Below the pieces are notes generated by a model, which was given only the letters and a program-made list of their open reading frames with translations, was not told the DNA's origin and did not search any database. Below, piece by piece: positions 17,292 to 17,840 of a stretch of DNA of 64,000 nucleotides. The translations under genes were made by a program, and so were the position numbers. Numbering within the stretch: position 1 is the first letter of the stretch; every line of letters starts with the position of its first letter. The stretch is from Harriotta raleighana (Eukaryota), in assembly GCA_050575255.1 (NCBI GenBank), contig JBNZDD010013596.1, positions 1,700,284 to 1,764,283 on the forward strand. The letters run 5' to 3'.

Positions 17292-17704
17292 CTGTCAAAC
17301 AACACAGAAGACAAAGCGTCACCTTCCAACTCCAAGTTGACGTTGGGATGAGAGAGAGGAAGGGAGGGAGGACCAGTCTTGTGGCCACAGTCACACAAGG
17401 TCCCACCTTTATACACTGCAACAGGGAGCTGCTCACCTGACAGCACACTTCGCGGCTCTCTCTTCCCATAAGTAGGATCCGACAGATCATTTTTTTTTCT
17501 CGGATTGCAATTTTTTTGGAAAAAAAATGAAATAAAAACAGCAGCCGTTTTATAATAGCTTGATTTTTTTTTTGGGGTGGTGGTGGGGGGCTTGGGGGGG
17601 GGGGGGGTTGGGGGGTTGTGGGGTGGGGGGTTTTGTCAGGATGTGTTCACATCTATTCATCAGTGGTTGCATCTCTGTGAGTCCTGCTTGCGGTCTCTTA
17701 TTCC

Positions 17705-17840
17705 TCAGCACTTTACTTTAGACGTTTTGAGCTCTTTTACCTGCATGTGCAGTGTTTTGTGAACAGCTAATGTTCTGGATTGACAAAATCCTTTGCCGCA
17801 TTCTTGACATTTGAAGGGTTTTTCTTTGGAGTGAATGTAC
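17705..17840 (-). CDS. osr1: osr1 second coding exon, read-through form: ZF3 plus [11 protein letters not shown] stop; 260-aa 3-finger isoform
   Basis: Acceptor TCCAG|G at 17841/17840 completes the AG+G Arg codon. Encodes [44 protein letters not shown] with TGA at 17707-17705, matching the known vertebrate OSR1 C-terminus. 647+136=783 nt. The spliced form of this exon ends at 17741 (100 nt). Confidence 0.95.

Follow-up and report, generated by a model that had tools for sequence, protein, structure and literature searches.

The last intron of Osr1 in the chimaera Harriotta raleighana is, with high probability, left unspliced in most transcripts, which then encode a three-finger OSR1 with an intron-encoded tail; a likely minority is spliced and encodes a five-finger protein like Osr2A. 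The gene lies on the minus strand of the window, the 64,000-nucleotide stretch of DNA analyzed here, and all positions refer to this window. Judged from its sequence, the locus is the Osr1 orthologue of a holocephalan, because its N-terminal region shared 93% identity with Callorhinchus milii Osr1 (residues 1-175), 85% with Osr1 of sharks and rays, and about 55% with Osr2, because a tree of the N-terminal exon (25 rows selected from about 290) placed it in the Osr1 clade with a support of 100/99 as sister to C. milii Osr1, and because a separate Osr2 with a TPRAEY end and the Osr2B acceptor is located on another contig of the same genome (L002 on G000:C13716).

An upstream coding exon (28516..28633, 39 codons plus 1 nt) was detected by tblastn with the N-terminus of the C. 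milii protein P0121 (85%); it encodes an N-terminal extension starting MPTWVCAC, has GT/AG ends and joins exon 2 in frame. Exon 2 (18691..19393), to which the 93% identity and the tree placement refer, contains the MGSK start at 19337, the N-terminal domain, finger 1 and most of finger 2. It is followed by a constitutive intron of 850 nt (17841..18690, donor CAG/GTAAGG with CAG in the exon) and by exon 3 (17741..17840), which by sequence reading encodes finger 3 and ends in HMQ with CAG as last codon. The last intron (17292..17740, 449 nt, GTAAAAGAG...TTTGACAG) begins at the 5' splice site CAG/GTAAAA (17735..17743) and ends with a conserved pyrimidine tract and acceptor (17292..17354). Exon 4 (17070..17291) is open in frame for 73 codons, encoding fingers 4-5, a 19-residue tail and a stop; it is coding in the five-finger form and UTR in the three-finger form. 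An AATAAA at 16465..16470 is the candidate proximal poly(A) signal common to both forms, and a second AATAAA is located downstream at 16018-16023 on the same strand. From the MGSK start the three- and five-finger products would have 260 and 322 aa, and with the upstream coding exon (28633-28516) 318 and 380 aa.

A 57-58-residue MPT extension ahead of MGSK is annotated in Osr1 of chimaera, sharks, rays, bichir, sturgeon and lungfish, and may represent a separate long isoform. The start of the upstream exon (MPTWVCACAP) occurs a second time at 28730-28789 on the minus strand, about 130 nt upstream of the full copy and between an N run and a single N; this copy is probably an assembly duplication. 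A tandem array within intron 1 (20241-20844), the translation of which repeats every 29 residues, looks like a minisatellite.

The first 33 nt of the last intron, when read in frame from exon 3, give an 11-aa tail followed by TGA at 17707-17705 (17705..17740 with the stop), which is the canonical OSR1 C-terminus. This intronic origin of the tail had been proposed by the sequence-only reading and was borne out: Osr2 (L002) has an intron at the same Q/E site (733 nt, donor CAG/GTAAGT), with a read-through unrelated to the Osr1 tail, and the tail was conserved in 144 Osr1 proteins. Its eleventh residue (17708-17710) was Cys in 95 of these 144 proteins; in 42, almost all of them teleost proteins, a stop takes its place. 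The human tail, compared by eye over eight codons of a primer printed in PMC3042965, displayed four silent differences, one Ile/Val change and a different stop codon; the differences are mostly silent and thus point to protein-level constraint on the tail.

Which form is made was judged from RNA contigs of a close relative (organism A) from two studies. Eight small-share runs were listed and seven compared, X7 being left out; the acceptor was covered in five runs, X6 and X8 ending short of it, and crossing of the donor was judged in X1-X4. Depth figures were kept out of the ranking of isoforms. In all four of these runs, a single contig joined exons 2 and 3 and continued for at least 42 nt past the last donor unspliced. 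Since the same contigs have exons 2 and 3 joined, the start of the last intron is kept in processed RNA. The acceptor was likewise crossed unspliced in X1-X4, with 42-63 aligned nt of intron, and the contigs of X2-X4 extended from the acceptor across exon 4 to the UTR. The contigs coming from either side met at 17521-17560, in different runs, no single contig covering the whole intron. The retained three-finger form is therefore the main form in the RNA sampled, which is that of a relative, and the intron serves mostly as the proximal 3'UTR of this mRNA. The sequence-only reading had treated retention as the exception; in the sampled RNA the retained form dominates, and it is the five-finger form that is difficult to find.

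Contigs containing the intron could also derive from unprocessed pre-mRNA or from DNA, with the five-finger form as the main product. The RNA nature of the organism A runs is indeed presumed, and the current RefSeq model of C. milii is a five-finger protein. However, the same contigs lack the upstream 850-nt intron and are unbroken at the last donor in 4/4 runs, and conservation of the tail extends from chimaera to mammals, making this explanation extremely improbable. It is possible that the five-finger form is dominant in some tissue or stage.

Within the intron, most of which could not be aligned to organism A at 80%, a 40-nt block with TATAAA and a U-rich tract (17521..17560) was alignable. 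This conserved block with its variant hexamer, together with contigs of X1 and X6 (one study) that end at about 17522, raises the question whether the three-finger mRNA results from intronic cleavage and polyadenylation near 17554, as a composite terminal exon. However, the ends in X1 and X6 fall at a T run, and in X3 and X4 the contigs begin upstream of this block and traverse it, the acceptor, exon 4 and the UTR. The intron also lacks a canonical hexamer: a direct scan of the 449 nt detected no AATAAA, as had been noted earlier from the letters, and no ATTAAA either, the variant hexamers being TATAAA (17554 and 17413), AATAGA (17657), AATAAG (17702) and AGTAAA (17717). Intronic polyadenylation as the source of the three-finger mRNA is thus highly unlikely, and the block may be in partial use.

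The expectation that the three-finger mRNA runs through the exon for fingers 4 and 5 to a shared signal at 16465 was correct in its first part, as contigs of X2-X4 extended through this exon into the shared 3'UTR. The signal at 16465 is, however, not the sole end: one contig of the relative stopped at 16460, beside the AATAAA, and that of X4 passed 16200 for 929 more letters, more than 1 kb beyond the signal, contigs being unable to fix an end. It also holds by gene anatomy that retention of the last intron leaves no exon junction downstream of the stop. Junction-dependent NMD would then have no junction to act on, and the retained mRNA would be expected to escape it and persist. The 3'UTR of the three-finger form measures 1240 nt from the stop to 16465, and from this length the retained mRNA may be subject to length-dependent decay.

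The five-finger Osr1 is likely a minority product, its splice being indicated indirectly by one contig fork. In X5, two contigs overlapped by exactly 30 nt and broke at 17294, where spliced and unspliced forms merge via a shared CAG; with a word size of the assembly that we take to be 31 letters, such an overlap marks a fork. The fork occurred in one of the five runs covering the acceptor, at low depth and at a place where 20 nt are common to the two paralogs, and might have arisen as a chimera by template switching between Osr2 and Osr1. No Osr1-specific contig with a spliced exon 3-exon 4 junction was detected in the seven runs of organism A. The only 449-nt joint, in X3 (record 15), was considered as such a splice and rejected. 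It had 13 and 14 mismatches in the flanking exons, compared with 13 and 15 expected for Osr1 versus Osr2, the Osr1 contigs having 4 over exon 3 plus tail; these counts and the position where the alignment stops identify it as Osr2. A 31-nt piece of X5 with a depth of about 120 at 17740-17770 (position inferred from bins) fits Osr2A and was not counted for Osr1. Among 37 chondrichthyan Osr1 proteins, 11 from nine species splice to exon 4 and four more leave the donor for other ends, the spliced isoforms in RefSeq and UniRef being automatic predictions that may be guided by OSR2 proteins.

The 5' splice site that had been claimed at the codons CAG GTA AAA was supported by these chondrichthyan Osr1 models, which use it, and by Osr2 of the same genome, which is spliced at the same position. 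The site belongs to the AG//GU class with A at +5 and +6, and its match to U1 is limited to -3 to +4 by both sequence and duplex energy. Donor strength was measured as the energy of the duplex with the U1 5' end and amounted to -8.3 kcal/mol for the last intron, -11.5 kcal/mol for the upstream Osr1 donor and -12.1 kcal/mol for the Osr2 donor. The last-intron donor is the weakest of the three, as its duplex energy is the least negative. The suggestion that the donor is suboptimal for want of a G at +5 was thus right as to the strength relative to its two sister donors, but a missing +5 G is not weakness in itself, since AG//GU-class donors without the GURAG consensus make up 45.1% of human donors according to PMC11732430. 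We infer that the restricted U1 match leads to leaky recognition, and therefore that the intron would often be retained, as was seen in the relative.

Conservation of CAG/GT at the Q-V junction had been proposed as a check for splicing constraint, and tells almost nothing about splicing, since GT opens all Val codons. Val was lost in two of the 144 tails (Ile and Ala), both from bony vertebrates. A dual coding and splicing constraint could at most concern a few bases at the intron start, in lineages that still use exon 4; the wider claim made earlier was overstated. At the other end of the intron, the 63 nt before exon 4 were nearly identical in organism A (one substitution and a 2-nt insertion, X5 record 10).

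Sequence comparison indicates that exon 4 is under purifying selection in chimaeras. The 54 finger residues were identical to those of C. milii P0121, and all six changes from organism A within the 54 finger codons were synonymous (P = 9e-5 under equal rates and 4e-4 under a transition bias). For the exon as a whole, 10 synonymous and three nonsynonymous changes were counted (raw dN/dS 0.08), the latter all after finger 5 and one of them read from P0121, as it lies at a contig end. The downstream UTR (16460-16967) differed from organism A by 32 substitutions in 508 nt, a lower rate per site than at the silent positions of exon 4 (10 in about 45), which suggests that this part of the UTR may be under constraint too. 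Exon 4 could be vestigial already, the intron never being productively spliced and the open frame reflecting slow chimaera evolution or UTR constraint. The fairly conserved UTR, the visible decay of exon 4 in sharks and rays and the lack of a direct Osr1 junction contig in seven runs would agree with this. However, the changes follow codon phase, with 11 of the 12 listed exon 4 changes at third positions besides the silent finger changes, no indels occurred in the exon versus 34 gap letters in the UTR, the acceptor is conserved, and the fork of X5 is located at the acceptor. We consider a vestigial exon 4 unlikely in this species, and an exon still spliced into a minority of transcripts the better account.

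In sharks and rays, exon 4 was preserved to very different degrees. Over the 54 finger residues, the differences from the window Osr1 numbered 0 in the holocephalan C. milii, 1 in Heterodontus, 4 in both Pristiophorus and Cetorhinus, 9 and 10 in two Chiloscyllium, 11 in Rhincodon and 16 in Scyliorhinus canicula, which has lost two zinc-binding cysteines. In Narcine the exon has a stop after 14 residues, and the other ray models listed carry the tail only. Over the same region, shark and ray Osr2 had 1-2 differences from C. milii Osr2. These protein comparisons suggest relaxed selection on exon 4 in sharks and rays, which probably set in more than once. An alternative tail in the whale shark (P0122) resembled the intron at position 17490, at a level not above shuffles (68 of 300, single frame), and was discarded.

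Among 126 non-chondrichthyan Osr1-class proteins, 122 carried the tail, four had other ends and none continued into exon 4. These 126 are the proteins reaching the end of finger 3 among 293 gathered (26 short ones dropped, some unnamed, and part of each large cluster), so that the lack of exon 4 use in bony vertebrates is a statement about proteins, not genomes. No five-finger bony-vertebrate Osr1 was found among the best 120 of 832 matches to the five-finger C. milii Osr1. With exon 4 alone as query, 54 matches were obtained, the named ones being from arthropods or Osr2, with no named stand-alone bony-vertebrate Osr1 exon 4 among them. It had also been suggested that the mammalian OSR1 3'UTR may hold a fossil of this exon; when UTR read-ins of 58-64 residues from three mammalian models were compared with exon 4 plus UTR, none matched better than shuffled sequences (20, 47 and 268 of 300). 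A proline-rich match of a mammalian read-in to the intron (9 of 300 shuffles) was rejected as low complexity. Six mammalian OSR1 models labelled low quality (P0027, P0029, P0255, P0256, P0259 and P0262), of about 326 aa, have a frame shift in the tail and run about 60 codons into the UTR; they are probably annotation artefacts.

In cyclostomes, nine of the 15 proteins reaching the end of finger 3 (one fragment dropped) continue into fingers 4-5 with an ESPHKC junction, in both lamprey genes and in hagfish, and six read through, the ends being VKPWPR, a VS form (hagfish) and, in four lamprey species, VKD. Arthropod counterparts of fingers 4-5 reach about 90% identity, and Drosophila Bowl is described in PMC11368183 as having five fingers. 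The intron that Osr2 carries at the corresponding site and the five fingers of the cyclostome genes mark the three-finger Osr1 as derived. A read-through at the same donor starts with VKE in P0071 (bear OSR2 X1) and with VS in bird and chimaera Osr2; the former is relevant to the question whether the Val-Lys donor is an ancestral or a convergent feature. In the invertebrate-like P0337, a pyrimidine-tract-like read-in ahead of ESPHKC gives a weak hint that the Q/E intron position may be older than vertebrates.

These data fit a model in which the ribosome would read 11 codons into the retained intron and stop, the rest of the intron and exon 4 being left as 3'UTR. Five fingers with an intron at Q/E would be the ancestral state, and the read-through tail would have come under protein-level selection in the jawed-vertebrate Osr1 lineage. 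With a working three-finger form, exon 4 would have become dispensable, decaying variably in sharks and rays, falling out of use in bony vertebrates and being kept in chimaeras. The basic tail might replace the linker after finger 3 and add contacts to the DNA backbone or a nuclear signal, which is a guess. Holocephalan Osr1 is likely a surviving halfway stage in the loss of two fingers from vertebrate OSR1. More tentatively, and with less confidence than doubt, a three/five-finger switch at this junction could be ancestral to all vertebrate Osr genes, by way of a retained leaky Val-Lys intron (VKD and VKPWPR in lamprey, VKE in Osr1). After duplication, Osr2 would have turned to an internal acceptor and Osr1 would have been frozen in the retained state, chimaeras keeping a regulated tissue- or stage-specific switch, the exon of sharks and rays dying stepwise, and the UTRs of bony-vertebrate OSR1 holding its dead remains.

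The closest known system is Osr2 itself, whose Osr2A and Osr2B are five- and three-finger splice variants (PMC3042965), and Osr1 cDNA repairs the cleft palate of Osr2 mutants according to PMC11818578. Osr1 of the chimaera resembles this pair in gene family, in the Q/E junction, in the choice of three or five fingers and in having the stop within the last exon in both forms. Kawai and colleagues are said to have reported in 2005 that Osr2A and Osr2B differ in activity. The two genes differ in the way the three-finger form is made: Osr2B arises through an internal acceptor, located 82 nt into exon 4, which shifts the frame (ACAG/ACATCA in L002), whereas Osr1 reaches three fingers by intron retention and lacks an acceptor of the Osr2B type, because the position 82 nt inside exon 4 is TG in Osr1 and AG in Osr2. 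The canonical three-finger OSR1 of bony vertebrates has the same protein end (VKELK-[PT]-S-K-[IMV]-K-C, in 122 of 126 proteins), but none of these 126 uses the exon for fingers 4 and 5, which in the chimaera is intact and, by its substitutions, apparently constrained.

Both forms have been modelled for C. milii osr1 in RefSeq (XP_007898597.1 with five fingers and XP_007898598.1 with three), and the lamprey osr isoforms ending in VKD or VKPWPR are also automatic read-through models. A literature search covering mainly openly accessible papers found none that describes a five-finger Osr1 or derives the OSR1 tail from an intron; the RefSeq isoforms are unremarked predictions, and no paper we found ties them to the origin of the tail. 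Much work has gone into OSR1 as a regulator of kidney, heart, joint and Mullerian-duct development, in which it is regarded simply as a three-finger protein. The locus explains the origin of its C-terminus, and a natural five-finger Osr1 lets one ask what fingers 4-5 and the basic tail contribute.

In the class of last-intron retention, the stop lies in the retained last intron with no junction downstream, the downstream exon becomes UTR, and a C-terminally truncated isoform results. Osr1 shares this layout: Osr2 and the chondrichthyan Osr1 models are spliced at the site in question, and the upstream intron was removed in 4/4 runs. It differs from the class in that retention yields the main product and, in most vertebrates, apparently the sole one, and in that the tail encoded by the intron is conserved in every jawed-vertebrate group sampled. 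The molecular mechanism, last-intron retention, is ordinary, and the value of the locus is that of an evolutionary snapshot, a rare and complete series showing how a minor splice outcome becomes fixed, with both forms kept in chimaeras, the exon decaying in sharks and rays, and unused in bony vertebrates.
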